Shown here piece by piece: positions 10,912 to 34,631 of a stretch of DNA of 45,069 nucleotides. Both the position numbers and the translations under genes were made by a program. Origin of the DNA: a virus; the IMG/VR virus record IMGVR_UViG_3300029607_000014; one strand, 5' to 3'. The stretch's first letter is position 1. Every line of letters begins with the position of its first letter. The notes beneath the pieces are model-generated. The model was not told the origin of the DNA. It was given only the letters and a program-made list of their open reading frames with translations, and searched no databases.

Positions 10912-12198
10912 ATGTTAAGCCCAGAATATTTACGGCAAATTACAGAGGGCAGTGAACAGATAGCAGAAGAACTGCATCAGTACATCATCTCTGAGATTGT
11001 ATCTCGAATGATGACAAGAATTGGCAGAGGTGAGGACTATATTCTGACCAATGCCGATGCGTGGAGAATCAGAACACTACAGGAATCTGGTGAGCTGCTA
11101 GAGGACATTCTGGCAGAATTATCCAGATACACCAAACGTGAACAGCAGGAACTCCTTGAGGCGTTTGAGGATGCTGGAATTACTGCGATGAACTACGATG
11201 ACAAGGTATACAAGGAGGCAGGACTTAGCCCTGCACCACTCGAACAGTCACCAGCTATGATAAGACTCATGGAGCGGAATATGCTTGCGACTATGGGCGA
11301 GTGGAAGAACTTTACACGAACAACTGCAAGTGCCGCTCAGAGGCTCTATATTGAGCAATGCGACCTTGCCTATAATCATGTAATGACTGGGGCAGTTGGA
11401 TATACGCAAGCCATCAAAGAGGCAGTTAATAACGTTGTGAGTAATGGCGTTACTGTCATATATCCATCTGGCAGAAAAGACACGATCGAAACAGCAGTAG
11501 CACGTTCTGTCAGAACCGGAGTCGCACAGGCGTGTGCTGATATTCAGTTAGCAAGAATGAAAGAAATGGGATACGGTTTAGTATTGACATCGGCGCACAT
11601 AGGAAGTCGCCCAAGTCATGAAGTATGGCAAGGGCAGGTATTTTCCATAGACTGGAAAAAATTAAAAGAAATCAAGCCGGAGTTCTTTCAGGAACGAGAT
11701 ACACCAGAATATCGTAGAATGCTGGAGCGAAAAGCAAGCCACTATCCAGATTTTATTGAAAACTGTCATTATGGCGAAGCTGATGGAATATGTGGAGTAA
11801 ATTGCAGACATCATTTTTCAGTTTGGGCGGAAGGAATGCCGAATCCCTACGCAGAACTATCGGCACAGGATAAAGCCAACAAAGGCGAACAATACGAAAA
11901 AGAGCAAAAACAACGTACTTACGAACGCAGAATCCGCAAAACAAAAAGAGAGGTTCTTGGACTGCAAGCAGGAGTTGACAATGCACCGAACGAAAAGGCG
12001 AAATTCGCATTACAACAAGACCTCGACCGGAAGTCTTATCTTTTGCAGAAACAAAATGCTGCATACAAGGCTTACTGCAAGCAGAACGACCTGAGGGAAC
12101 TGCAAGACCGGCTCATGATAGCGAAGTGGAACCGCCAGAATGCCGCAAAAGCCAGAGGAGCGGCGAAGAGATATAAAACAGCAAAGGGGATTGACTGA
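10912..12198 (+). CDS. head-morphogenesis / minor capsid protein (Mu F / SPP1 gp7-like)
   Basis: Position after portal; GVNCRHHF motif typical of the MuF-like C-terminal core; basic coiled-coil tail. Confidence 0.75.
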   Translation: MLSPEYLRQITEGSEQIAEELHQYIISEIVSRMMTRIGRGEDYILTNADAWRIRTLQESGELLEDILAELSRYTKREQQELLEAFEDAGITAMNYDDKVYKEAGLSPAPLEQSPAMIRLMERNMLATMGEWKNFTRTTASAAQRLYIEQCDLAYNHVMTGAVGYTQAIKEAVNNVVSNGVTVIYPSGRKDTIETAVARSVRTGVAQACADIQLARMKEMGYGLVLTSAHIGSRPSHEVWQGQVFSIDWKKLKEIKPEFFQERDTPEYRRMLERKASHYPDFIENCHYGEADGICGVNCRHHFSVWAEGMPNPYAELSAQDKANKGEQYEKEQKQRTYERRIRKTKREVLGLQAGVDNAPNEKAKFALQQDLDRKSYLLQKQNAAYKAYCKQNDLRELQDRLMIAKWNRQNAAKARGAAKRYKTAKGID

Positions 12199-12578
12199 TG
12201 GATAGATGGGAATATTACAATCCGAATCCTGCCGGTAATCGAGTCGGAGATTGCGTTGTCCGAGCAATATGCAAAGCAACTGGTCTTGACTGGGAAACGG
12301 TATTTGCCGGATTAATGATACAGGCGTGCGCTCTGTCAGATATGCCAAGCGCAAATTATGTCTGGGGAGCGTACCTCTATAAACGTGGGTACAGACGCAA
12401 ACTGATTGAACAATCAGAACGATATATCTATACAGTCAATGATTTTTGCACAGACCATCCGACAGGCACGTACATTCTCTGCATAGATGGTCATGTGGTG
12501 ACAGTACGGGATGGAAAATATTACGATACATGGGATTCCGGAAATGAAGTCCCGGTATATTACTGGGAAAAGGAGTAG
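12198..12578 (+). CDS. hypothetical protein with Cys/His/Asp triad-like arrangement (possible papain-fold enzyme)
   Basis: NRVGDCVVRAI ... CIDGHVVTV..GKYYDTWDSG; TGATG coupling to MuF gene. Confidence 0.5.
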   Translation: MDRWEYYNPNPAGNRVGDCVVRAICKATGLDWETVFAGLMIQACALSDMPSANYVWGAYLYKRGYRRKLIEQSERYIYTVNDFCTDHPTGTYILCIDGHVVTVRDGKYYDTWDSGNEVPVYYWEKE

Positions 12579-12582
12579 CTAA

Positions 12583-12888
12583 ATGAGCATATCAGAATTT
12601 GTACAGATTTTCCTTTCTATCTGCGGAGGGGTGTCTATTGTCGGAGGGGCGGCAGCCGTAATCTTTAAATGGATTACCCCGGCATTCCGACTTAATAAGC
12701 GAGTAGAGACGCTGGAAGAACATGATAGACGAGATTATGAAAGTCTTCGGAGAATCGCAGAACGAGATTCATTAATTCTGGAAGTGTTGTCGACCATGCT
12801 GGATAGTCAGATTAGTGGGAATAATGTAGAAGAATTAAAAAAAACAAAACAGAAGCTTACAAATTATCTTGCGCAGAATCAACGTTAG
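12583..12888 (+). CDS. N-terminally membrane-anchored coiled-coil protein (101 aa)
   Basis: FVQIFLSICGGVSIVGGAAAVIF TM segment; AAAGGAG RBS. Confidence 0.55.
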   Translation: MSISEFVQIFLSICGGVSIVGGAAAVIFKWITPAFRLNKRVETLEEHDRRDYESLRRIAERDSLILEVLSTMLDSQISGNNVEELKKTKQKLTNYLAQNQR

Positions 12889-12908
12889 CATTAATAAGGG
12901 GTATGCTC

Positions 12909-13109
12909 ATGAAATTATATGTGTTCACAAAGAAAGATATAGACAGGTTCTTGATAGAGTGTAATTTCACACCGGACGAAGAAAGATTGTTCCGGTTGAG
13001 GTGTAAGGAATATACACTCGAATACTGCGCTGAGCAGATGAACGTGAGTATATCCACGGCGAAACGATTAAGCCGGAGGGTGAACAATAAAATAATTAAA
13101 GTGTGCTGA
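12909..13109 (+). CDS. sigma-70 region-4-like HTH protein (66 aa)
   Basis: TPDEERLFRLRCKEYTLEYCAEQMNVSISTAKRLSRRVNNKI resembles sigma r4/LuxR-type HTH. Confidence 0.55.
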   Translation: MKLYVFTKKDIDRFLIECNFTPDEERLFRLRCKEYTLEYCAEQMNVSISTAKRLSRRVNNKIIKVC

Positions 13110-13163: not shown

Positions 13164-13197
13164 ATGTAAAAATATAATCAGAAAGGCGGTGTATAAG

Positions 13198-13668
13198 ATG
13201 GCATTATATAACAATCCTTATCAATATAGTTTTGGCGTTCCTGGGCAGATGAACCAGTTTCAGCAACAGCCTGTCCAGATGCCGGCTCAATCAGTACAGC
13301 AACCACAGCAAAATAATAGCGGTATCCTGTGGGTATCCGGCGAAGTCGGCGCAAAATCCTATCTGGTAGCACCTGGGACAAGTGTTTTGCTAATGGATTC
13401 AGAATCAGAGAAATTTTATATAAAATCCACAGATGTATCCGGTATGCCACAGCCACTGCGGACATTTGAATACCACGAGGTGGGCTCTCAGATGCCGCCT
13501 AAACAGCCTGTTCAGAACATGGACAGTAAATATGTTACTCGACAGGAATACGATGATTTGAAAGGCAAATACGAAGCTATTATAAACCGATTAAATTCAT
13601 TTTCTGAACCTGTTAGGGCTAATACCGTACAGGAATCAGCAGTCAAGGGAGGAAACGCAGATGAGTAA
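13198..13668 (+). CDS. Gln/Pro-rich hypothetical protein (156 aa)
   Basis: GAAAGG RBS; QFQQQPVQMPAQSVQQPQQ low-complexity N-terminus, then GILWVSGEVGAKSYLVAPGTSVLLMD core. Confidence 0.6.
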   Translation: MALYNNPYQYSFGVPGQMNQFQQQPVQMPAQSVQQPQQNNSGILWVSGEVGAKSYLVAPGTSVLLMDSESEKFYIKSTDVSGMPQPLRTFEYHEVGSQMPPKQPVQNMDSKYVTRQEYDDLKGKYEAIINRLNSFSEPVRANTVQESAVKGGNADE

Positions 13669-13882
13669 TCCATTATTTAACGCCCTCGGTGGCGGGATGC
13701 CGCAGGGAAATGGACCAATGCAGATGATACAGCAGTTCATGCAGTTCAAACAGAATTTTAAGGGAGATCCGAAAGCAGAAGTTGAGAAAATGTTACAGTC
13801 TGGGAAGATTTCTCAGCAGCAACTTAATCAGGTCCAACAGATGGCAGGGCAGTTTCAACACATGTTGAAAGGAATGAAATAG
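13661..13882 (+). CDS. Gln/Met-rich small hypothetical protein (73 aa)
   Basis: GGGAGGA RBS; overlaps upstream stop. Confidence 0.55.
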   Translation: MSNPLFNALGGGMPQGNGPMQMIQQFMQFKQNFKGDPKAEVEKMLQSGKISQQQLNQVQQMAGQFQHMLKGMK

Positions 13883-13933
13883 TACATTACAATCTGGCCA
13901 GATTGATGTAAATACAATAAAGGAGATTATATT

Positions 13934-14713
13934 ATGGATGGAAATTATAGCTTAGCAGATATTGCCGCTGCTACTGGAAATGGTAGAAATAATGACGGCA
14001 TGTTTGGTGGAGATGGTAGCTGGTGGATTATTGTTTTATTCATTTTTGCTTTCTTCGGATGGGGAAACAACGGCTGGGGAAATAATGGAAACGGCGGCGG
14101 ATATGCAGCCACGGCAGCTACTCAGGCGGATATTCAGAGAGGATTCGACAATTCTGCAGTGATCAGCAAGCTTGACGGAATCAATAGCGGCCTGTGCGAT
14201 GGCTTCTATGCCATGAATAATGGTATGCTTACCGGATTCAACGGAATCAACACAAACATCATGCAGACTGGTTTCGGCATTCAGCAGGCTATTAACGCTG
14301 ACACTGTAGCAAATATGCAGAATACCAATGCACTCCAGGCACAGCTTGCGAACTGTTGCTGCGAAACCAGAGAAGCAATTCAGGGCGTAAACTACAATAT
14401 GGCGCAGAACACCTGTGCATTACAGAACACCATGAACAGCAACACAAGAGATATCATTGACAGCCAGAACGCTGGGACAAGAGCCATTCTCGACTATCTT
14501 TGCAATGAAAAGATTTCTAACCTGCAGGCTGAAAATAACGACCTCAGACGTGCTGCTTCTCAGGACCGTCAGAGCGCACTTCTCACAACTGCAATGGCTT
14601 CACAGACACAGCAGCTCATTAATGCGATTAATCCGGCACCGATTCCGGCATATCAGGTTCCTAATCCGAACACATTTTACGGATGCGGATGCAACACTGG
14701 ATGTAATTGCTGA
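13934..14713 (+). CDS. single-pass membrane protein with GWGNNG repeats, N/Q-rich body and Cys-rich C-terminus
   Basis: AAAGGAG RBS; WWIIVLFIFAFFGWGNNGWGNNGNGGG; ANCCCE; ...YGCGCNTGCNC end. Confidence 0.65.
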   Translation: MDGNYSLADIAAATGNGRNNDGMFGGDGSWWIIVLFIFAFFGWGNNGWGNNGNGGGYAATAATQADIQRGFDNSAVISKLDGINSGLCDGFYAMNNGMLTGFNGINTNIMQTGFGIQQAINADTVANMQNTNALQAQLANCCCETREAIQGVNYNMAQNTCALQNTMNSNTRDIIDSQNAGTRAILDYLCNEKISNLQAENNDLRRAASQDRQSALLTTAMASQTQQLINAINPAPIPAYQVPNPNTFYGCGCNTGCNC

Positions 14714-14776
14714 TAACTTCATATCGAGAGTATCTTTCGATTGATTCGGATGTCGGCTTATGCCGTATTACACAGA

Positions 14777-14801
14777 GGGCAGGCTGAGACCTGTCCTTTT
14801 G
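14777..14801 (+). terminator. rho-independent terminator
   Basis: gggcagg-ctgaga-cctgtcc (one G-U) followed by tttt. Confidence 0.6.
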
Positions 14802-14822
14802 TGATATGAAAGGAGTATTTTT

Positions 14823-15245
14823 ATGGCAGAATTTACAAATGTAGCTGCTCAGACTGTAGCAGCAAATGGAAACGTAGTATTTTCAAGCACAGCAGTTAAA
14901 GGTTCTAACTGTATTCAGCACAGAGAGGGAAGTGGAATTATTACGCTGAGAGGACTGACTAATCAGTGCAAAGCGAGATTCTTCGTGGATTTTTCTGGCA
15001 ATATCGCAATTCCAACAGGCGGTACTGTCGGAGCTATTTCTCTGGCTATTGCAATCTCTGGTGAGCCGGTTCTTTCTTCACAGATGATTTCCACACCGGC
15101 AGCAGTAGACCAGTATAATAATGTGTCCTCTGGCATTTATATTGATGTACCTCGTGGATGTTGCGTTAACATCGCAGTAGAGAATACAAGCAATCAGGCT
15201 GTTTCTGTTGCAAATGCAAACATTGTTGTGACCAGAGAAGCGTAG
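14823..15245 (+). CDS. 140-aa beta-rich hypothetical protein (possible C1q/BclA-C-terminal-like jelly roll)
   Basis: GAAAGGAG RBS; alternating hydrophobic beta pattern ...FFVDFSGNIAIPTGGTVGAISLAIAISGEPV...CCVNIAVENTS...ANIVVTREA. Confidence 0.6.
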   Translation: MAEFTNVAAQTVAANGNVVFSSTAVKGSNCIQHREGSGIITLRGLTNQCKARFFVDFSGNIAIPTGGTVGAISLAIAISGEPVLSSQMISTPAAVDQYNNVSSGIYIDVPRGCCVNIAVENTSNQAVSVANANIVVTREA

Positions 15246-15256
15246 GAGGTGTGATT

Positions 15257-15811
15257 ATGAGAGATATTAAAGACTTATGCGCAAGAATCGAAGATGAACT
15301 TTCCAAAATCGCTGATAATGGACTGACCACCGGAAATCTGGAAATGACATACAAACTGATTGATATGTACAAAGATATCAAGAACACTCAGTACTGGGAT
15401 AAGAAAGTAGAGTACTACAACACTGTCCTTGATGAAATGCGTGGCGGATACAATGACGATTACAGCGAGCGGGGAAGAAAGCGGGACAGCATGGGGAGAT
15501 ACAGCGCAAATGATGGCAGAATGATGCCGGATTACGACAGGGGCAATTCTTATGCCAGACGTGGTGAACATTATGTCAGAGGGCATTACAGTCGCTCTGA
15601 TGGGCGAGATGCTTACGATGACTACATGACGCAGAAGCAAAGCTATCGTTCCGGCAAGTCTGAAGACTGCAAGAGGAAGATGCTTGCCGCTCTGGAAGAA
15701 CATCTGGACGAACTTACAACAGAAATGAGCGATATGTCCAAGGACGCAGAGTGCCGGGAAGAACGTGATCTTGTCAAGAGATACGTGGAAAAACTTCGCG
15801 ATATGCTCTAA
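15257..15811 (+). CDS. hypothetical protein with helical ends and an R/D/Y/G/S-rich disordered core (184 aa)
   Basis: AGGAGG 7 nt before ATG 15257; RGRKRDSMGRYSANDGRMMPDYDRGNSYARRGEHYVRGHYSRSDGRDAYDDY. Confidence 0.6.
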   Translation: MRDIKDLCARIEDELSKIADNGLTTGNLEMTYKLIDMYKDIKNTQYWDKKVEYYNTVLDEMRGGYNDDYSERGRKRDSMGRYSANDGRMMPDYDRGNSYARRGEHYVRGHYSRSDGRDAYDDYMTQKQSYRSGKSEDCKRKMLAALEEHLDELTTEMSDMSKDAECREERDLVKRYVEKLRDML

Positions 15812-15992: not shown

Positions 15993-16141
15993 TTTGTCAT
16001 CTGGCACGCAAGATGGCTCACCTCCTTGATTAAGGTTTTTGTTATTCATACTTTTCTTTTAAAAAAGAAATAAATATCCGAAACAACTCGTGGTAGGCAT
16101 AACACGTTAAATACCTTGCTAACCCGGGAATCCGGGTTATG

Positions 16142-16214
16142 TGGAATGTAGCTCAGTAGGAAGAGCGGAGATGCTGAATTCTTGACGTCAGAGGTTCAAG
16201 TCCTCTCATTCCAT
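16142..16214 (+). tRNA. tRNA-like gene, 73 nt, canonical acceptor/D/T arms but poorly paired anticodon stem (possible pseudo-tRNA; anticodon unassignable)
   Basis: tggaatg/cattcca acceptor; gctc-agtaggaa-gagc D arm; agagg-TTCAAGT-cctct T arm; anticodon stem gagat/tcttg has only 2 pairs. Confidence 0.5.
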
Positions 16215-16290
16215 TACCCTGCCAGTGGTCTAACTGGCTTAATCCATTTACCTGCGGCGGCAGGTCAATAAACACGACCAGGAGGATGTT

Positions 16291-16923
16291 ATGCAGAAAC
16301 TTATTGACACATTAAAATCATTTGGAATCGAAATCCCGGAAGATAAACAGGCAGATGTGAAGAAAGCACTCTCTGAGCATTACAAAAATGCTAAGGAAGT
16401 AGCAAAAACCCTGTCGAAAGTCGAGGGTGAACGTGATGACTGGAAAGAACGTGCTGAAGCAGCAGAAGAGACCCTGAAAGGTTTTGACGGTATCGACCCG
16501 GCAAATGTTAAAACCGAGTTAGAGACTTGGAAACAGAAAGCGGCAGATGCAGAGAAAGAATTCAACGCAAAAATCTATGACCGTGATTTCTCAGATGCAC
16601 TTAAAACAGCACTCGATGATGTTAAATTTTCCAGTGAGGCTGCAAAGAAATCAGTCATGGCAGACATCAAAGAAGCTGGATTAAAACTGAAAGACGGTAA
16701 AATCCTTGGACTGAACGATCTGATCGAGCAGATGAAGCAGTCTGACGCATCCGCTTTTGTGGATGAATCTCAGCAGCAGGCTCAGCAGAATCAGGCGAGA
16801 TTTACAACACATGTTGGACAGCAGCAGACACCGGGAAACATGACAAAGAAAGATATCGAAGCAATCAAAGACCCGTCCGAGAGACAGGCTGCAATTGCTC
16901 AGAATATCCAGTTATTCCAGTGA
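16291..16923 (+). CDS. scaffolding protein (phage GP20-like)
   Basis: 210 aa, highly charged helical (K/E/A/D), Q-rich tail, directly upstream of major capsid gene. Confidence 0.7.
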   Translation: MQKLIDTLKSFGIEIPEDKQADVKKALSEHYKNAKEVAKTLSKVEGERDDWKERAEAAEETLKGFDGIDPANVKTELETWKQKAADAEKEFNAKIYDRDFSDALKTALDDVKFSSEAAKKSVMADIKEAGLKLKDGKILGLNDLIEQMKQSDASAFVDESQQQAQQNQARFTTHVGQQQTPGNMTKKDIEAIKDPSERQAAIAQNIQLFQ

Positions 16924-17003: not shown

Positions 17004-18173
17004 ATGGCAGCAAAAGCTAATCTTATTATGACTAATGATATTCAGGTAAAGGCACGTGAGATTGACTTTGTTACCAGATTCGAAAGAAACTGGCAGCACT
17101 TACGTGATATTCTGGGCATCATGAGACCTATCAAAAAACAGCCGGGTGCTGTACTGAAATCTAAGTACGCAGAGGGTACTTTGCAGAGCGGAAATGTTGG
17201 TGAGGGCGAGGAAATCCCTTACAGCAAATTCACTGTAAAAGAAAAGAACTATGCGGAAATGACTATCGAGAAGTACGCAAAGGCTGTATCTATCGAAGCA
17301 ATCAAGGATCACGGTTACGAGAACGCTGTTCAGATGACTGATGATGAATTTCTTTTCCAACTTCAGACTGACGTTACCGGCAGATTCTATGATTATCTGA
17401 AAACCGGTACGCTTACTTCCACAGAAACAACATTCCAGATGGCTCTGGCAATGGCTAAAGGTCGTGTTGAAAACAAATTCAAACAGATGCACAGAAATGT
17501 GACTGGTGTTGTTGGATTTGTGAACATTCTGGACGTATATGAATATCTCGGAGCGGCCGAGATTACTATTCAGAACCAGTTCGGATTCCAGTATATGAAG
17601 GACTTTATGGGATTCAATACAATCTTCCTGTTATCCGACAGCGAAATCCCGAGAGGACAGGTTATCGCTACTCCTGTTGAGAACATCGTACTTTACTATG
17701 TTGACCCGAACGAATCTGACTTCGCAAGAGCAGGTCTTGTATACACTGTGTCTGGCGAGACAAATCTGATCGGATTCCATACTCAGGGCAACTACCACAC
17801 AGCAGTATCCGAAGCGTTTGCGGTCATGGGTCTTACTCTTTTCGCAGAGTACATTGACGCAATCGCAGTAATTACCATTGACGAGACACCTACACTCGGT
17901 ACTCTGACAGTAAATTCTGTAGCAGGTTCAGCGACCGGAGATACAAAAATCACTGTAAATCCGGCTAAGGAAAATGCCGGCAATGTGTATAAATACAAAG
18001 TTGCAGCAGAAGCAGTAACTGTCGGATATGGACAGAATCTCAGAAACTGGACTACTTGGGACGGAAAAGCTGATATTAAGGCGGCAACCGGACAGAAGAT
18101 CACAGTGGTTGAGTGCGACGGAACATACAAAGCACTGAACGCCGGAAGTGCAAGCGTAACAGCGAAATCATAA
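17004..18173 (+). CDS. major capsid protein with C-terminal Ig-like extension
   Basis: 389 aa after scaffold; C-terminal TLGTLTVNSVAGSATGDTKITVNP...KITVVECDG resembles a Big_2-type domain. Confidence 0.75.
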   Translation: MAAKANLIMTNDIQVKAREIDFVTRFERNWQHLRDILGIMRPIKKQPGAVLKSKYAEGTLQSGNVGEGEEIPYSKFTVKEKNYAEMTIEKYAKAVSIEAIKDHGYENAVQMTDDEFLFQLQTDVTGRFYDYLKTGTLTSTETTFQMALAMAKGRVENKFKQMHRNVTGVVGFVNILDVYEYLGAAEITIQNQFGFQYMKDFMGFNTIFLLSDSEIPRGQVIATPVENIVLYYVDPNESDFARAGLVYTVSGETNLIGFHTQGNYHTAVSEAFAVMGLTLFAEYIDAIAVITIDETPTLGTLTVNSVAGSATGDTKITVNPAKENAGNVYKYKVAAEAVTVGYGQNLRNWTTWDGKADIKAATGQKITVVECDGTYKALNAGSASVTAKS

Positions 18174-22685: not shown

Positions 22686-22705
22686 ATTTATAGGAGGTGA
22701 TTTCC

Positions 22706-23248
22706 ATGAGTGAAGAAATTTGGAAAGATATTAAAGGCTATGAGGGTCTGTATCAAGTAAGTAATCTGGGAAGAATAAAAAGCCTTGAGCGTAGATGTAA
22801 AGCAAGATGGTATACAAGAAAAGTACCAGAGAAAATTTATTCTCCTGCGCTTGATACTTACGGCTATCCAATAGTCTCTTTGCATAAAGACGGCAAAAAG
22901 AAAACAATTACAATTCATAAATTGGTTGCAAATGCTTTTCTTAAAAAGCCGGACGGTTGCAATTCTATTAATCACATTGACGAAAACAAACAGAATAATT
23001 GCGTTGAAAATCTTGAATGGTGTACCGTTCAGGAAAACAATGCTTATGGAACGAGAGTAGAACGGCTAAGGAAAACTCAGCAAAGAGCAGTTTTACAATG
23101 TGATTTAGACGGAAACGTAATCAAAGAATGGGAAGGAATGAACTTCCTTTGCAGAGAGACAGGATACGATCAAGGTCTAATATCTAAAGTATGCAACAAT
23201 GTTTATAGGCATCGCACTGCATATGGGTTCAAATGGAAATTTAAATAA
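22706..23248 (+). CDS. HNH homing endonuclease (NUMOD4-like N-terminus + HNH_3-like)
   Basis: WKDIKGYEGLYQVSNLGRIKS; INHIDENKQNNCVENLEWCTVQENN. Confidence 0.85.
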   Translation: MSEEIWKDIKGYEGLYQVSNLGRIKSLERRCKARWYTRKVPEKIYSPALDTYGYPIVSLHKDGKKKTITIHKLVANAFLKKPDGCNSINHIDENKQNNCVENLEWCTVQENNAYGTRVERLRKTQQRAVLQCDLDGNVIKEWEGMNFLCRETGYDQGLISKVCNNVYRHRTAYGFKWKFK

Positions 23249-23275
23249 TCATGGTAATACCGTGCTAAGCATCGA

Positions 23276-23301
23276 AGAGTCTCGTTAAGAGGCTCTTTTT
23301 T
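23276..23301 (+). terminator. hairpin + U5 after HNH ORF (terminator-like or intron peripheral stem)
   Basis: agagtctc-gttaa-gaggctct then ttttt. Confidence 0.35.
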
Positions 23302-23437
23302 GATGAAAGTGTAACGACTATTCCGCGAGGAAGTAGGTTTAAGGTGAAATTCCCTATTCCGAAGTGCCATGCATCCTATTTGGATGAAGAGATAGTCTAC
23401 TCCCCTAATAAATATCGGGAAACCGAGGGTATAAAGG

Positions 23438-26038
23438 GTCGTTATGACACAAAGCGCACTTGATCAGTACGCACTTGCTAATGGTTATGGGAAAACCACA
23501 TCTGAAATGACAGAGCAGGAGAAAGTGGCTCTCCGCCTGGCTTTTGTACAGAAACAGTTGTCTGCCGCATCTGGTGATTTCATCCGAACATCTGACAGTT
23601 GGGCGAACCAGGTGCGAGTGATGCAGTTACAGCTGCAATCTCTCAAGGCAACAGTCGGACAGGGATTAATCAACCTCTTTACTCCTGTTCTGAAAGTTAT
23701 CAATATCTTACTCGGTAAGTTAGCAACTCTGGCAAATGCCTTCAAGTCATTTACGGAATTGATTACCGGAAAGAAGTCTTCTGGACAAACAGGCGCGAGT
23801 GGCGCAGGCCTTGCCGGAACGGATGCAATAGCCGACACAGCCGATCAATACGGAGAAGCTGCCGATAATGCTGAAAAGCTGGCAGATGCAACAAATGATA
23901 CAGCGGACGCAACTAAAAAAGCTACTAAAGCGGCAAAAGGGTATCTTAGTCCCCTCGACGAAATAAATAATTACTCAACGGATAAAAGCGCAGATTCATC
24001 GTCAAAAGTACCGGGTGCAACCGGCGGACTTGCGGATCAGATGAAAGATGCTGTACAAAATGTTGATTACGGAAAGTTGGCAGAGGGTGAGACAGTTCTT
24101 GATAAAATGTCAAAACCGCTAAAAAAGATAATCGACAGATTTAAACAGCTGGCCAAGTTAATCGCAAAAGGATTCTGGGATGGATTGGGAGATTACGAGC
24201 CAATTTTTGACGGAATAAAGAAAGATCTCGATTCCATATGGAAATCTTTAAAGGATATCTTCACTGATTCAGAAGTTACTAAAGCAGCAAATAATTTTTT
24301 CGATTCATTTGCATATGCAATTGGACAAGTTGCTGGCTCATTTGCCAGAATCGGATTGACAATTGCGCAAAACATTATAGGCGGAATCGAGAAGTTTCTA
24401 AAGCAGAACGCGCAAAGAATAAAGAACTATCTGATAGATATGTTCAACATCGGTGCTGAAATTTCACAAATCGCAGGAAATCTTGCAGTTGCTTTCGCAG
24501 ATGTTTTCTCAGTTTTTGGTGGAGAAACCGCGCAGCAGATCACAGCAGATTTAATTGGGATTTTTGCTGAAATTGGAATGACCGTCACGGAAACGGCTGC
24601 AAAACTTGGCAGAGATATCCTTAACATGATTGCACAGCCTTTTATCGACAACAAGGACATTTTAAAGTCAGCAATCGAGGGTAGCCTCGGAGTAATAGAA
24701 ACCGTAACAAGTGGGGTCTTAACAGTTGTTCAAAACCTTAGTGACGCAGTATCAAGATTATACGATGAGCATGTAAAACCGTTCTTTGATTCTATAGCAG
24801 ATGGATTATCAAGTATACTTGAAACTCTAATAACTGGATATAACACATACATTCTTCCGGTGTTACAAGGACTGGCAGAGCAAATTAAAGGGTTGTTAGA
24901 GGGACCATTAGGGGACGCGATTTTAAAGATAGAAACATTCCTCGGAAAACTCATTGATTCTCTGAAGCTTCTGTGGGAGTCGGTATTAGTGCCTTTAATT
25001 AACTGGATAATCGCGAATTTGCTTCCAGTTGTGGCAGAAGTAATTGACGTTGTAGGCACTGTGGCAATCAAAGTCATAAAATCATTAATTAAAATTATTG
25101 GTGATGTAGCAGACACTCTGAGCGGAATCATTGATTTCCTTGTAGGCGTTTTTACGGGAGACTGGGAACTGGCTTGGCAAGGAATAAAAGAGATTGCAGA
25201 TGGAGCATGGAACTTTATCAAAGATGCTGTGTCAGGTGCGTGGGAGATAATTAAAACCGTAACAAAAGGTGCACTGAACATAATAAAGACCGTCATTAGC
25301 ACTGCCTGGAACGCAATCAAGACAGCAACTTCAACAGTCTGGAATGCCATTAAAAAAACTCTTTCCGGATTATGGAATGCTCTTAAAACCACGGCAAAAA
25401 CAGTGTTTGACGCAATTAAGGCCAAAGTTACGGGCGTTTGGGACAAAATAAAAGACAAGACATCCCGAACATGGGAAAGCATTACTACTTTTGTGTCTAC
25501 TAAAGTCGAAGCGATAAAAACCGCCATTACCGATAAGTTTAATGCTGCCAGGGATGCGGTCAAATCAGCATTTGAAGGTATCGTGGATTTTATCAAAAGG
25601 CCAATTAATCAGGCAATTAATATCGTCAATAATGCAATCGGAGTAATCAACAACGCAATTGGTGGAATCGAATCAGCGTTTTCTTTTGGCCCATGGAATG
25701 TACCTACACCATTCGGAACAAAGAGAATCGGGTTCCATGCAACATTTCCACGTGTCGGAACTATTCCGTATCTGGCCAGCGGTGCAGTTATTCCACCGCG
25801 AAGTGAATTTCTCGCAGTATTAGGAGACCAGAAGAAAGGGAATAACCTGGAAGCACCGGAAAGCTTACTGCGACAGATCGTCCGGGAAGAGTCAGGGAAA
25901 GGACAGGGAAATGGAAACACTTACAATGTTACAGTCAATGCATCTGGCAGAAAACTATTAGACATTATCATTGATGAAGCAGAGCTTAGGAGACGCAGAA
26001 ATGGCGGTCAGAATCCATTCTTGTTAGGAGGTGTATAA
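23438..26038 (+). CDS. tail tape-measure protein, exon 2
   Basis: VVMTQSALDQYALANGYGKTTSEMTEQEKVALRL...DFIRTSDSWANQVRV continues the conserved TMP core; long helical body with 11-aa Trp periodicity. Confidence 0.85.
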   Translation, partial: VVMTQSALDQYALANGYGKTTSEMTEQEKVALRLAFVQKQLSAASGDFIRTSDSWANQVRVMQLQLQSLKATVGQGLINLFTPVLKVINILLGKLATLANAFKSFTELITGKKSSGQTGASGAGLAGTDAIADTADQYGEAADNAEKLADATNDTADATKKATKAAKGYLSPLDEINNYSTDKSADSSSKVPGATGGLADQMKDAVQNVDYGKLAEGETVLDKMSKPLKKIIDRFKQLAKLIAKGFWDGLGDYEPIFDGIKKDLDSIWKSLKDIFTDSEVTKAANNFFDSFAYAIGQVAGSFARIGLTIAQNIIGGIEKFLKQNAQRIKNYLIDMFNIGAEISQIAGNLAVAFADVFSVFGGETAQQITADLIGIFAEIGMTVTETAAKLGRDILNMIAQPFIDNKDILKSAIEGSLGVIETVTSGVLTVVQNLSDAVSRLYDEHVKPFFDSIADGLSSILETLITGYNTYILPVLQGLAEQIKGLLEGPLGDAILKIETFLGKLIDSLKLLWESVLVPLINWIIANLLPVVAEVIDVVGTVAIKVIKSLIKIIGDVADTLSGIIDFLVGVFTGDWELAWQGIKEIADGAWNFIKDAVSGAWEIIKTVTKGALNIIKTVISTAWNAIKTATSTVWNAIKKTLSGLWNALKTTAKTVFDAIKAKVTGVWDKIKDKTSRTWESITTFVSTKVEAIKTAITDKFNAARDAVKSAFEGIVDFIKRPINQAINIVNNAIGVINNAIGGIESAFSFGPWNVPTPFGTKRIGFHATFPRVGTIPYLASGAVIPPRSEFLAVLGDQKKGNNLEAPESLLRQIVREESGKGQGNGNTYNVTVNASGRKLLDIIIDEAELRRRRNGGQNPFLLGGV

Positions 26039-33029: not shown

Positions 33030-33300
33030 GTTGGACACACGTTGGTCACAAATAAGAAAAAATATTTCCTAATTAAATATCCTCTAAAGTACTGTATTTA
33101 AAGGACTTTTTGACATTTGCATAGTTCTAATTTAATGCCCTAATTAAATACAATTAGAATAATGAAAATGAAATGAGTGAATTCCTTGCAAAATCGCTGA
33201 GAATGTTGATTTTACAAGGGTTTCACGCGTTTTTATGTTCTGAATTGTGATGAATAAAATTGATAAAATAAGATTCCGTTAGTCACAGTTAGTCACAAAT
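33030..33300. repeat. attP-like region with arm-type repeats
   Basis: Tandem GTTGGACACA-c-GTTGGTCACA (33030..33050) and GTTAGTCACA x2 (33278..33297); CCTAATTAAATA x2 (33068, 33139); inverted ttctaatt/aattagaa. Confidence 0.5.
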
Positions 33301-34460
33301 GGGACTTTTATTTTCTCAATCTCTGTTCGGAGTTCTTCCAATGTCCTGTGTCCATATACCGCGTTTGTAACATCTCCACCAAAAGAGTGACCCAGCATTC
33401 GCTTCCGGTCGTTCTCCCGGACGCCGTATTTTTCGCACAGCGCAGAAAAGGTGTGTCGACAATCGTGCGGCGTGTGCTTCGGATCACCGACTATTCCTAA
33501 ACGTTCCAGTGTAGGATAGAACAACGCTTTTCTGTGATGCTGCTGAGTATACACGCATAATTTTCCATCTTGTGTCAGCACTTTCTGTTCGACAAAATGG
33601 TATATAGCGGGATGTATCGGGACAATTCTGTTTTTACCGGCTTTTGTTTTGATGCCGCCTTGAAAGTATCCTTCTTCTAAGTTGGTTGTAAGTTTTAACA
33701 CTTCACCGATTCTCCAGCCGGAGTAACACATAATAAGAATGAGCTGTACTTCTTGATTGTCGGTATTATTCCACAGCACTTGCATTTCCTGATCAGAAAA
33801 GGGCGTTCCATGTTCGGTGTCATTATCAGCATTGACATGGACATATAACGCCTTGTTTTCCGTTACAATTTCTGAGTAAACAGCATATTTATACATCTGC
33901 TTGAACAGCGTAAGAATCGCCATGAGACTCTGACGCTTTAACGGGCAGTCATCAATTACCTTTTGCAGATCAGGCGCTTTTAAATCCTCAAAGATACGAT
34001 TGTACAGAGTCGTACAGTTCGAGTAAGCGGTCTGGTAAGCTATTTTTGAACTATAAGAAAGTTTTGAACCCTCTGGAAATTTCCATGCGTAAAACTTCTT
34101 ATATACCTCTGAAAACGTCAATTTCTTGATTTCCGGGTGTTTATCCTCGACACCCTTGATTGTGTTGTAGTCAGCAATCAAACGAGTAACAAGGGTATCT
34201 ACGTCCGTTGTAGGTGATATCTCAAGGTCTCGTTCCATCCCTGGCTGATATGTTCCTGCCTTGTATGCGGTCAGTACAGTAAATCCTTTAATCCAGTCGT
34301 CTACATAGCAGATTGCAGGCGGTCGGACGGGCTTTCCGGTCTTTTCATCCAGCACTGCCGGAGGATGAACCGCAAACGGATTTCTGCGGTTGCCGCCCAG
34401 GTGCCGTATTGTTCCGAAACTGTTAGGGAGCTTCGGGTATTTCTTTCTTTTCTTCGCCAT
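33279..34460 (-). CDS. int: tyrosine integrase
   Basis: C-terminal catalytic pattern HDCRHTF...MLGH...VYGHRT; AGAGGGA RBS before internal ATG 34460. Confidence 0.9.
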   Translation of the reverse strand: MAKKRKKYPKLPNSFGTIRHLGGNRRNPFAVHPPAVLDEKTGKPVRPPAICYVDDWIKGFTVLTAYKAGTYQPGMERDLEISPTTDVDTLVTRLIADYNTIKGVEDKHPEIKKLTFSEVYKKFYAWKFPEGSKLSYSSKIAYQTAYSNCTTLYNRIFEDLKAPDLQKVIDDCPLKRQSLMAILTLFKQMYKYAVYSEIVTENKALYVHVNADNDTEHGTPFSDQEMQVLWNNTDNQEVQLILIMCYSGWRIGEVLKLTTNLEEGYFQGGIKTKAGKNRIVPIHPAIYHFVEQKVLTQDGKLCVYTQQHHRKALFYPTLERLGIVGDPKHTPHDCRHTFSALCEKYGVRENDRKRMLGHSFGGDVTNAVYGHRTLEELRTEIEKIKVPFVTNCD

Positions 34461-34631
34461 TTTTATTCCCTCTTTCTGTAGCTGTATTTTAGGTATAAAA
34501 ATAACAGCCGAACAAACTTTCTGACTTGCCCGACTGCTCCGAAGATGATACAATATGTTTTGCCAGAATATTACATTTCTTCGGAGATGTATAAACGCCA
34601 CCTCGGTACGCTAATGCCGGGGTGGTTTTTA

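Follow-up and report, generated by a model that had tools for sequence, protein, structure and literature searches.

The DNA pilot protein H of phage phiX174 has an N-terminal Gly-rich transmembrane segment followed by a long coiled-coil tube lined with Gln and Asn, i-spanins carry an N-terminal transmembrane segment, a long coiled coil and Pro and Cys residues near the C-terminus, and several superinfection-exclusion proteins combine an N-terminal anchor with an extended helical domain. In the exosporium, the trimeric fibres of BclA and F-Anchor have a Pro-rich leader peptide that is bound by ExsF trimers in the clefts between ExsF subunits (PMC12357932). The present analysis concerns a gene, here called T (13934-14713, + strand), in a stretch of viral DNA of 45,069 nucleotides, referred to as the window (IMG/VR virus record IMGVR_UViG_3300029607_000014). 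The i-spanins, phi29 p16.7 and phiX174 H resemble its product in outline only, and the closest mechanistic analogue is the docking of BclA/F-Anchor on ExsF/BxpB in the exosporium. T is the centre of a self-contained mobile accessory cassette of five to seven genes; the set moves as a unit among unrelated phages, and T is genetically locked to a partner with the BclA/ExsF fold. We tentatively propose that T is the membrane-inserting stalk subunit of a multi-protein assembly encoded by this cassette, and that a jelly-roll trimer docks to it.

T was confirmed as a real, strongly conserved phage gene. Its open reading frame (ORF) lies exactly where an earlier reading of this DNA (the first-pass annotation) had placed it, begins with ATG, encodes 259 amino acids (aa) and is preceded by a ribosome-binding site (RBS) 8 nt upstream. 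Comparison with homologues from five bacterial genome loci gave 0.13-0.24 non-synonymous changes per site (pN) and 0.72-0.80 synonymous changes per site (pS), the latter being saturated, which indicates strong purifying selection on T as a protein. Given its biased composition (N, G, Q, A), the ORF might be taken for a chance open frame in low-complexity DNA and no real gene, a reading that we regard as practically inconceivable: these substitution rates, the thousands of homologues with conserved motifs, the conserved synteny around T and the RBS upstream of it all speak against it, and the conservation data refute it. T is a full-length member of PHROG 16490 (E=1.4e-57, 196.6 bits, aa 8-259 on profile positions 12-281 of 286), with a weaker match also to PHROG 9288. 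PHROG 16490 is catalogued with no assigned function, structure or literature, and no paper on it, on the T family or on the cassette was found in a literature search. A sigma-70-like TTGAAA-17-TACAAT lies upstream of T at 13865-13893, although such sites are here no more frequent than in shuffled sequence, and promoter and terminator scans around T likewise gave results no better than shuffled sequence. Between T and the next cassette gene, an imperfect GC-rich hairpin followed by TTTT (AGGGCAGG-ctgaga-CCTGTCCTTTT, 14773-14803, + strand) was found by eye and is absent from the output of the terminator scan; it might dampen transcriptional read-through to the cassette genes that follow.

The gene neighbourhoods of the family were analyzed in 63 loci, which were retrieved by scanning one genome per species with an alignment of eight T sequences and compared via tBLASTn with the window proteins and via de novo clustering of all locus ORFs. 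The loci belong mostly to Lachnospiraceae, Oscillospiraceae, Ruminococcus and Clostridium, and some of the bins are labelled Bacilli, Collinsella, Bacteroidales or Absconditabacterales. Across them, as well as in cultured phages, the order of the cassette is fixed: c1, then c2 or c7, T, c3 or c9, c5 or c8, and finally c4 or c10, often with c6 and a small helix-turn-helix (HTH) protein on the 5' side. c1 stands two genes 5' of T in 43 loci, and c2 or c7 occupies the position directly 5' of T in 43 loci as well. Co-occurrence was determined by profile hidden Markov models (HMMs) for the 42 loci with at least 2.5 kb upstream and at least 3 kb downstream of T. Here, c1 was present in 36, c3 or c9 in 36, c2 or c7 in 34 and c5 or c8 in 30, and a peptidase-like protein was likewise present in 30, either c4 (15 loci) or c6 (15 loci) and never both together. 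The cassette occurs in two co-inherited lineages, c2/c5/c4 and c7/c8/c10/c6. The phage genes around it are not conserved between loci, and its parts are small, oligomerising or low-complexity proteins with no recognisable enzymatic domain save the peptidase.

The cassette is found at different places in different genomes. In the window, where T is on the late-gene strand, and in loci L056-L063 it lies between the genes for a MuF-like minor capsid protein and a scaffold, and the crAss-like phage cr116_1 has the gene between lysis and small-terminase genes on one side and capsid genes on the other. In Butyrivibrio phage Ceridwen, however, the full cassette follows the endolysin gene, in Clostridium perfringens phage HMD-PC1 it stands among early or replication genes, in Bacteroides phage C3_41T2LP the T homologue is found among RecT, YqaJ and resolvase genes, and in the Methanomassiliicoccales virus vir215 it adjoins a reverse transcriptase and an integrase. 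T had been described in the first-pass annotation as a gene of a phage head module, a description that these other locations contradict. In Ceridwen, a gene for a 264-aa Cys-rich protein (L066, 24928-25722), which by its sequence resembles a homing endonuclease, interrupts the cassette between c3 and c8, which indicates that the cassette tolerates insertions while its gene order is kept. In the window, a tRNA-Gln gene (anticodon CTG, 16141-16215, + strand) lies between the cassette end at 15811 and the scaffold gene at 16291, in the slot where other cassettes have c10 or c4.

The partner c3, which follows T in the window, was modelled with AlphaFold2 (AF2) from an alignment of homologues that are 60-97% identical. 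The model is an all-beta jelly roll with a predicted local distance difference test (pLDDT) score of 85.4 and a predicted template-modelling (pTM) score of 0.80. Its top PDB match in Foldseek was the C-terminal domain (CTD) of F-BclA (9h38, TM-score 0.77-0.79, E=3e-7), and further matches were BclA-CTD (1wck and 2r6q, TM-score 0.75-0.78) as well as BxpB (8d02), ExsFA (7r1m) and ExsF (9h3d), the last three with TM-scores of 0.66-0.77 and E-values of 2e-5 to 8e-5. TNF-family ligands and C1q heads came next in line, and the matches in BFVD were labelled 'BclA protein', C1q and collagen-like viral proteins. The best PDB matches share 10-13% identity with c3, which implies a shared fold with ExsF/BxpB and not family membership. 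c3 conserves C49, C113 and C114, and c9, its alternative at the same place, has a Cys-rich N-terminus (e.g., MSCKNVCKLC) and a beta-rich body.

The likeness to the exosporium extends beyond the BclA-CTD/BxpB/ExsFA fold of c3 (TM-score 0.72-0.79): c3 is, like ExsF/BxpB, a stand-alone TNF-like jelly roll in the size range of about 140-170 aa, the stalk of T is long, probably oligomeric and bears a conserved Pro-rich peptide at one of its ends, and the components are Cys-rich and made without signal peptides. In contrast to BclA, the stalk of T is alpha-helical and has no GXY repeats, the leader TIGR03720 is absent, and the T chain contains no TNF/C1q jelly roll, this fold being supplied by the separate c3; T was rejected as a BclA-type member on these three grounds. 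It differs from the exosporium as a whole by its membrane anchor and by hosts that include non-spore-formers and archaea. No Pfam or NCBIfam family, exosporium families included, was matched by T, c1, c7 or c8.

The anatomy of T was derived from an alignment of 35 diverse full-length family members (A1), which share 37-64% identity with the window protein, and the coordinates of its parts are given in Table 1. All family hallmarks are found in the window protein, namely the anchor, Q-R-G-F-D, C-C-C and PxPxPAYxVxNP with a Cys tail. T consists of 14.7% N, 12.4% A, 11.2% G and 7.3% Q, and the region after its Gly-rich start is rich in N, Q, A and T. The features that the first-pass annotation had read from the translation, i.e., the Gly-rich N-terminus, the transmembrane stretch, GWGNNGWGNNGNGGG, the N/Q-rich region, the Cys clusters and the C-terminal end YGCGCNTGCNC, are all there; its segment of N-x-x-M/N repeats is present as well and is better described as one long predicted helix spanning aa 101-232. 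The hydrophobic stretch WWIIVLFIFAFFGW (aa 30-43) reaches a Kyte-Doolittle mean of 2.07 in its top 15-aa window, and an anchor is present in all 35 aligned homologues, with a hydrophobic core of 13.7 aa on average (range 10-20). Summed over these 35 sequences, its N-side flank contains 18 K/R and 100 D/E and its C-side flank 47 K/R and 67 D/E, and an R or K often follows the anchor directly (e.g., GRNG, NRNG). A G/W/F/N-rich linker equivalent to GWGNNGWGNNGNGGG is found in every homologue of the alignment. The residues Q68, R69, F71, D72, C141-C143 and P245 are invariant, and entropy calculated over 116 close relatives was lowest for aa 67-150 and highest for aa 191-235.

The AF2 model of T, built with A1 as input, contains a short helix at aa 7-13, a helix within the anchor at aa 30-41, and one unbroken helix over aa 101-232. 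Its pLDDT is 80-92 over aa 160-240 and low elsewhere, including the conserved block at aa 62-100. The hydrophobic periodicity of aa 100-235 peaks at 3.65 residues, near 11/3, and the modelled helix would correspond to the usual picture of an oligomeric coiled-coil subunit. T has ten cysteines (positions 88, 141-143, 161, 190, 251, 253, 257 and 259). Of its Cys clusters, C141-C143 alone is invariant (35 of 35) and it is kept in the crAss-like and Bacteroides-phage homologues, whereas C161 and C251 are nearly invariant, as is A157. The helical region before the triplet is variable in length, and a second helical stretch follows it. The CCC-bearing helical unit is doubled in the vir215 homologue (L067, 5878-6759) and in P0209 (..SCCCN..DCCCQ.. 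and ..DCCCKTQ..QCCCDNR..), which indicates that the CCC block is a duplicable module. In the family motif N-P-x-P-[IV]-P-[AS]-[YF]-x-V-x-N-P, P236 and P238 are conserved in at least 90% of the aligned sequences besides the invariant P245, and Cys-rich tails of variable length are found across the family. The conservation of these Cys motifs lends indirect support to the earlier suggestion that T is a disulfide- or metal-linked protein.

The T family is large: it counts over 8000 close clusters in the database searched and, at 50% identity, 2136 representatives (E<=1e-3), and the 90%-identity cluster group of the window protein itself holds thousands of member sequences. Many of the 50%-cluster representatives are frameshifted or chimeric (P0122, P0124, P0127, P0128, P0140, P0183 and P0232), for instance with T joined to the neighbouring HTH gene, to c8 or to an SGNH-like esterase, or translated in a different frame. 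Caution is therefore due with family sizes and domain 'fusions' that were derived automatically, and the long or odd P0183, P0124 and P0232 were discarded as domain fusions, since they look like assembly or frameshift chimeras. The family also reaches crAss-like and other Bacteroides phages, in whose homologues anchor, CCC triplet and PxPxPAYxVxNP-Cys tail are all retained, as well as viruses that are assigned to gut methanogens, where the homologue of vir215 was detected at an HMM E-value of 2.5e-15 and is labelled phrog_16490 in its record. Database labels of crAss-like homologues as 'spike protein/glycoprotein' or 'outer capsid protein/viral fiber' found no support that could be reproduced; a literature search on these spike and fibre labels, on Cys-rich coiled-coil prophage proteins and on the virion proteomes of the carriers found nothing relevant. 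The architecture of T had been called unusual, and this was borne out, as no match to a characterised family was found in Pfam, NCBIfam, PADLOC, PDB or Foldseek searches. The single sequence had no match in Pfam and NCBIfam (E<=0.1) or in a PDB sequence search, a PDB profile search (E<=10) and a Pfam scan with the 35 members yielded weak matches below significance, for the most part to coiled-coil proteins, and PADLOC returned a weak coiled-coil match to ZorA alone (E=0.007). Foldseek found zero matches for the T model in PDB, a result of little weight for a model that has low overall confidence and is mostly one long helix.

We propose that the Trp-bracketed segment at aa 29-44 enters the cytoplasmic membrane, leaving the small acidic N-terminus outside and the bulk of T in the cytoplasm (N-out/C-in), as in the insertion of Pf3 coat protein. 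This orientation is favoured by the acidic N-flank, by the R or K that often follows the anchor and by the partners: none of the partner proteins in the window has a hydrophobic N-terminus, so that none looks secreted and all should be cytoplasmic. The helix at aa 101-232 would form an oligomeric, probably trimeric, hendecad-type coiled coil of about 19 nm, and the Pro-rich motif and Cys tail at its far end may dock a c3 trimer, by analogy with the docking of BclA/F-Anchor on ExsF. The Cys clusters of T and c3 would then lock the complex, either through metal in anoxic hosts or through disulfides after release. The Met/Gln-rich c7, encoded directly 5' of T, is a candidate holdase that might shield the hydrophobic segment before insertion, and the single peptidase of each cassette, of the HExxH or the Cys-His-Asp type, may process one of the assembly's proteins to its mature form. 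The data show the anatomy of T, its conserved gene context, the fold of c3 and the distribution of the family; how T is oriented in the membrane, how many copies associate, whether T touches c3, the action of c7 as a chaperone and of the peptidase, and what the assembly is for are inferred.

Several observations weigh against this proposal. The contact between T and c3 is suggested by analogy, and no co-variation was visible between the C-terminal motif of T and the partner type (c3 or c9), although any such co-variation would mostly reflect ancestry given the two co-inherited cassette lineages. A hydrophobic core of 13.7 aa on average is marginal for spanning a bilayer, the weak charge bias on the C-side makes the topology call soft, and the confidence of the AF2 model is low overall (mean pLDDT 60.7). 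The vir215 homologue has the anchor and two CCC units and is missing the Pro/Cys tail. Moreover, in the crAss-like, Bacteroides-phage and archaeal loci the Firmicutes-type HMMs detected T and, in C3_41T2LP, a weak c4. By eye, the crAss-like and Bacteroides-phage neighbours include a beta-rich protein with Cys (136-180 aa), one of 168-177 aa that combines a small beta domain with a coiled-coil tail, one of 74-77 aa that is rich in Arg, Asp, Tyr and Glu, and an HExxH protein, and it is from such reading of the sequences that the crAss-like, Bacteroides and archaeal partners appear equivalent to those of the Firmicutes cassette. Lastly, a family spread over hosts that are monoderm, diderm or archaeal would more naturally have a role in the virion, or one facing the environment, than in a complex of the host membrane.

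Such a virion-borne T could be an accessory adhesive fibre, with T as the stalk and c3 as a C1q-like knob, the hydrophobic N-terminus holding it on capsid or tail, or an internal ejection or pilot protein that inserts into the membrane of the target cell at DNA delivery, like phiX174 H; this is the main rival, which we consider rather doubtful. The distribution of the family over tailed viruses of Bacillota, Bacteroidota and gut methanogens fits a particle- or gut-tied function better than one bound to a single type of cell envelope, in the window and at least eight other loci the cassette is flanked by the MuF-like minor capsid gene and the scaffold gene, and in cr116_1 only a few kb separate the gene from those annotated as major capsid protein. 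All cassette proteins are without signal peptides, as virion proteins are, a maturation peptidase is typical of virion assembly, and the Met/Gln-rich protein encoded 5' of T might hold the hydrophobic segment in solution until it is packaged. The knobs of phage fibres are often TNF/C1q jelly rolls, and the Foldseek matches include the tail-fibre CBD of cyanophage A-1(L), the central spike of phi812 and viral collagen/C1q proteins. T also shares with phiX174 H a Gly-rich hydrophobic N-terminal segment followed by a very long N/Q-rich helix with a periodicity of about 11/3. Contrarily, no PDB profile (E<=10) or Foldseek match to H was obtained, T has Cys motifs and a Pro/Cys tail, and its carriers are tailed phages that already possess tape-measure proteins. 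T had no match in sequence or fold among solved virion proteins, a literature search found no proteomic data, and its strongly hydrophobic, Trp-bracketed segment would be expected to enter the membrane of the producer cell. Furthermore, the cassette stands outside the structural modules in Ceridwen (after the lysin), in HMD-PC1 and C3_41T2LP (early, recombination or replication genes) and in vir215 (near the integrase). The location of T among replication and recombination genes in HMD-PC1 and C3_41T2LP recalls the replication organiser p16.7 of phi29, which shares with T and with the i-spanin Rz an N-terminal single transmembrane segment, a coiled coil and a functional C-terminal end; however, T is without sequence similarity to p16.7 or i-spanins, has no recognised DNA-binding domain, is much longer and comes with an entourage of five genes. 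The i-spanin layout, together with the position of the cassette after the endolysin gene in Ceridwen and about 1.2 kb from a holin and an L,D-carboxypeptidase in cr116_1, might suggest that T assists lysis as a spanin, holin or antiholin would, by perturbing or fusing membranes late in infection, the more so as membrane disruption is needed in all hosts. We find this quite improbable: the CHAP lysin of the window is 17 kb away from T, the hosts are for the most part monoderm Clostridia, which lack an outer membrane that could be fused, no o-spanin lipoprotein partner was seen among the neighbour sequences of T, the acidic N-flank and the charge distribution speak tentatively against an N-in, C-out orientation with a periplasmic coiled coil, and known lysis systems have no place for jelly-roll or low-complexity partners.

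That T is a superinfection-exclusion protein, as had been raised in the first-pass annotation, or another membrane protein altering the host envelope, with its neighbours accessory or unrelated, is, in our view, improbable. T shares an anchor and an extended helical domain with several known exclusion proteins, and the cassette resembles a mobile 'moron' module in its variable position and its own small HTH gene, in Ceridwen even in the classical moron position after the lysis genes. The idea is weakened, however, by the location of T: different from Sie and Ltp exclusion proteins, it is outside the lysogeny module (the integrase, 33279-34601, is on the opposite strand), and the records of crAss-like carriers have no lysogeny genes near the T homologue. 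Exclusion proteins are usually single, host- or phage-specific genes, whereas T is tightly linked to four or five genes across phyla, and the ZorA match was all that PADLOC gave. The same annotation had considered a spore-surface-like factor. T would then be directed to the spore or exosporium, with the phage adding a BclA/ExsF-like layer to host spores, and the fold of c3, nearest to exosporium proteins, gives this some indirect support, as do the Cys-rich T and c3/c9, which resemble the proteins of the exosporium basal layer, the many host bins of Lachnospiraceae, Oscillospiraceae and Clostridium, and a cytoplasmic assembly without signal peptides that matches assembly in the mother cell. 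As a general role it is nonetheless very improbable, since T homologues are present in Bacteroides phages and in viruses assigned to Methanomassiliicoccales and the full cassette in a Butyrivibrio fibrisolvens phage, and none of these hosts is known to form spores. In addition, the collagen-like region and exosporium leader are absent from T, as described above, and no sporulation sigma factor was recognised, the 68-aa HTH protein matching sigma-70 region 4 alone and below cut-off. For the third suggestion, a bacteriocin-like factor, no positive evidence was obtained, and we hold it to be exceedingly improbable that T is the precursor of a secreted Gly-rich toxin whose leader is cut by the Cys-His-Asp peptidase. 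The N-terminal S-L-A-D-I-A-A-V-T-G-(G/N) loosely resembles double-glycine leaders, the spacing of the c6 triad (C19, H99, D110) resembles that of C39 peptidases, and the hydrophobic segment is Gly/Trp-rich. Unlike class II bacteriocin loci, though, the T locus has neither a C39 match (c6 and 14 relatives against Pfam, E<=1) nor an ABC exporter or other transporter, half of the cassettes have the HExxH protein in place of c6, and a protein of 259 aa with a conserved long helix is unlike known bacteriocins; the reading of the T N-terminus and c6 as a double-glycine leader and its C39 peptidase was set aside, as profile support was absent.

Table 1. Positions in the window of gene T, the parts of its product and the genes of its cassette.
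Feature	Position	Strand	Basis
Gene T (259 aa, ATG start, PHROG 16490 member)	13934..14713	+	ORF list, PHROG match, homologues, pN far below pS
RBS AAAGGAG, 8 nt 5' of the ATG of T	13919..13925	+	read from sequence
T, acidic N-terminal segment, aa 1-28, family motif S-L-A-D-I-A-A-x-T-G (often S-L-A-D-I-A-A-V-T-G), then Gly-rich linker	13934..14017	+	A1 consensus
T, hydrophobic membrane-anchor segment, aa 29-44, SWWIIVLFIFAFFGWG, Trp on both sides	14018..14065	+	hydropathy, AF2, A1
T, Gly/Trp/Asn-rich linker GWGNNGWGNNGNGGG, aa 42-56	14057..14101	+	read in sequence
T, most conserved block, aa 62-100: Q68-R69-(G70)-F71-D72, then KLDG..GLCDGFY	14117..14233	+	A1 invariant columns
T, long N/Q-rich alpha-helix, aa 101-232, presumed coiled-coil stalk	14234..14629	+	AF2, periodicity
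T, Cys-Cys-Cys triplet C141-C143 inside the helix	14354..14362	+	invariant in A1
T, Pro-rich motif N-P-A-P-I-P-A-Y-Q-V-P-N-P-N, aa 233-246, proposed docking peptide	14630..14671	+	A1
T, Cys-rich C-terminal tail GCGCNTGCNC, aa 250-259	14681..14710	+	read in sequence
c6, 126 aa, invariant D18-C19, R22, H99, D110	12198..12578	+	alignment A5
HTH protein, 68 aa, sigma-70 region 4-like	12903..13109	+	NCBIfam TIGR02937, E=9e-5, below family cut-off
c1, 159 aa, Q/N/P/Y-rich N-terminus, small beta-rich domain, helical C-terminal tail	13189..13668	+	PHROG 21718, E=4.6e-38
c7, 73 aa, Met/Gln-rich, helical, directly 5' of T	13661..13882	+	PHROG 22984, E=4.7e-27
c3, 140 aa, TNF/C1q-type jelly roll	14823..15245	+	PHROG 20016; AF2, Foldseek
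c8, 186 aa, helical ends, Arg/Gly/Tyr/Asp-rich low-complexity middle	15251..15811	+	PHROG 28802, E=1.1e-63

The remaining cassette proteins were characterised from their sequences and profile searches. c7 has an N+Q content of 27% and, like c2, is small (about 75 aa), helical and rich in Met and Gln, and c5 shares the layout of c8 with helical ends and an Arg/Gly/Tyr/Asp-rich middle. The residue pattern of c6 corresponds to a papain-like triad, so that c6 is a putative peptidase, and neither searches with c6 in PDB and, together with 14 relatives, in Pfam (E<=1) nor those with c1 in PDB and Pfam found a match. c4 (about 107 aa) carries an HExxH motif, with weak hints to IrrE/SprT and 'metallo-protease', and searches of Pfam and PHROGs with representatives of c9, c4, c5, c10 and c2 gave nothing beyond these weak hints for the HExxH protein. 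In 9-13 loci, homologues of the 68-aa HTH protein were found 5' of the cassette. Its gene and c6 are separated in the window by that of a 101-aa protein (12583-12888, + strand), which has a hydrophobic segment (Kyte-Doolittle mean 2.14) at its N-terminus and a tail that is helical and charged; in a similar place, other loci have a different transmembrane protein, c13, with a GDGGNANYIGNDGDIYNG motif. Further downstream in the window, residues 306-387 of the presumed major capsid protein (17004-18173, + strand) match the Pfam family 'S-layer protein SbsC C-terminal domain' (E=1.1e-16), which could be a surface-exposed decoration or adhesion domain. Additionally, about 90-130 bp within 23194-23419 (+ strand) are 76-89% identical to more than 200 phages of Staphylococcus, Listeria, Enterococcus, Bacillus and Brochothrix, in which the counterparts lie within genes annotated, e.g., as terminase large subunit. 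This segment is located between the ORF 22697-23248 and the tape-measure ORF 23444-26038 and resembles group I introns in Rfam weakly and below threshold (RF00028, 18.4 bits, E=0.019); possibly, a small intron of this group or what is left of one splits or adjoins the tape-measure gene here.

As a system, the cassette matches nothing characterised. The protein family was already known, being catalogued as PHROG 16490; the cassette, the fold of the partner and the spread across domains are new. A wider interpretation, which we put forward as speculative and on balance unlikely, is that the cassette might be an undescribed accessory structural module that has spread horizontally in the gut virome over viruses of Bacillota, Bacteroidota and methanogens. 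It would encode a Cys- or metal-locked fibre in which the stalk T is tipped by or seated on a C1q/BclA-like trimer, together with Q/N- and R/G/Y-rich matrix proteins and its own maturation peptidase, and would amount to a viral equivalent of the exosporium nap, displayed by the particle or by the infected cell and selected by the gut habitat rather than by any one host. The cassette or its T homologue is carried by cultured phages, namely Butyrivibrio phage Ceridwen, Bacteroides phage C3_41T2LP and several C. perfringens phages, which makes the question directly testable. Among the unexplained protein families of gut phages, that of T is one of the larger ones, and solving the cassette would assign a function to five or six genes now listed as 'hypothetical' across the genomes of thousands of gut phages. 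If the interpretation as a habitat-selected surface structure is true, it would represent a new way in which gut viruses interact with cells, with mucus or with each other.

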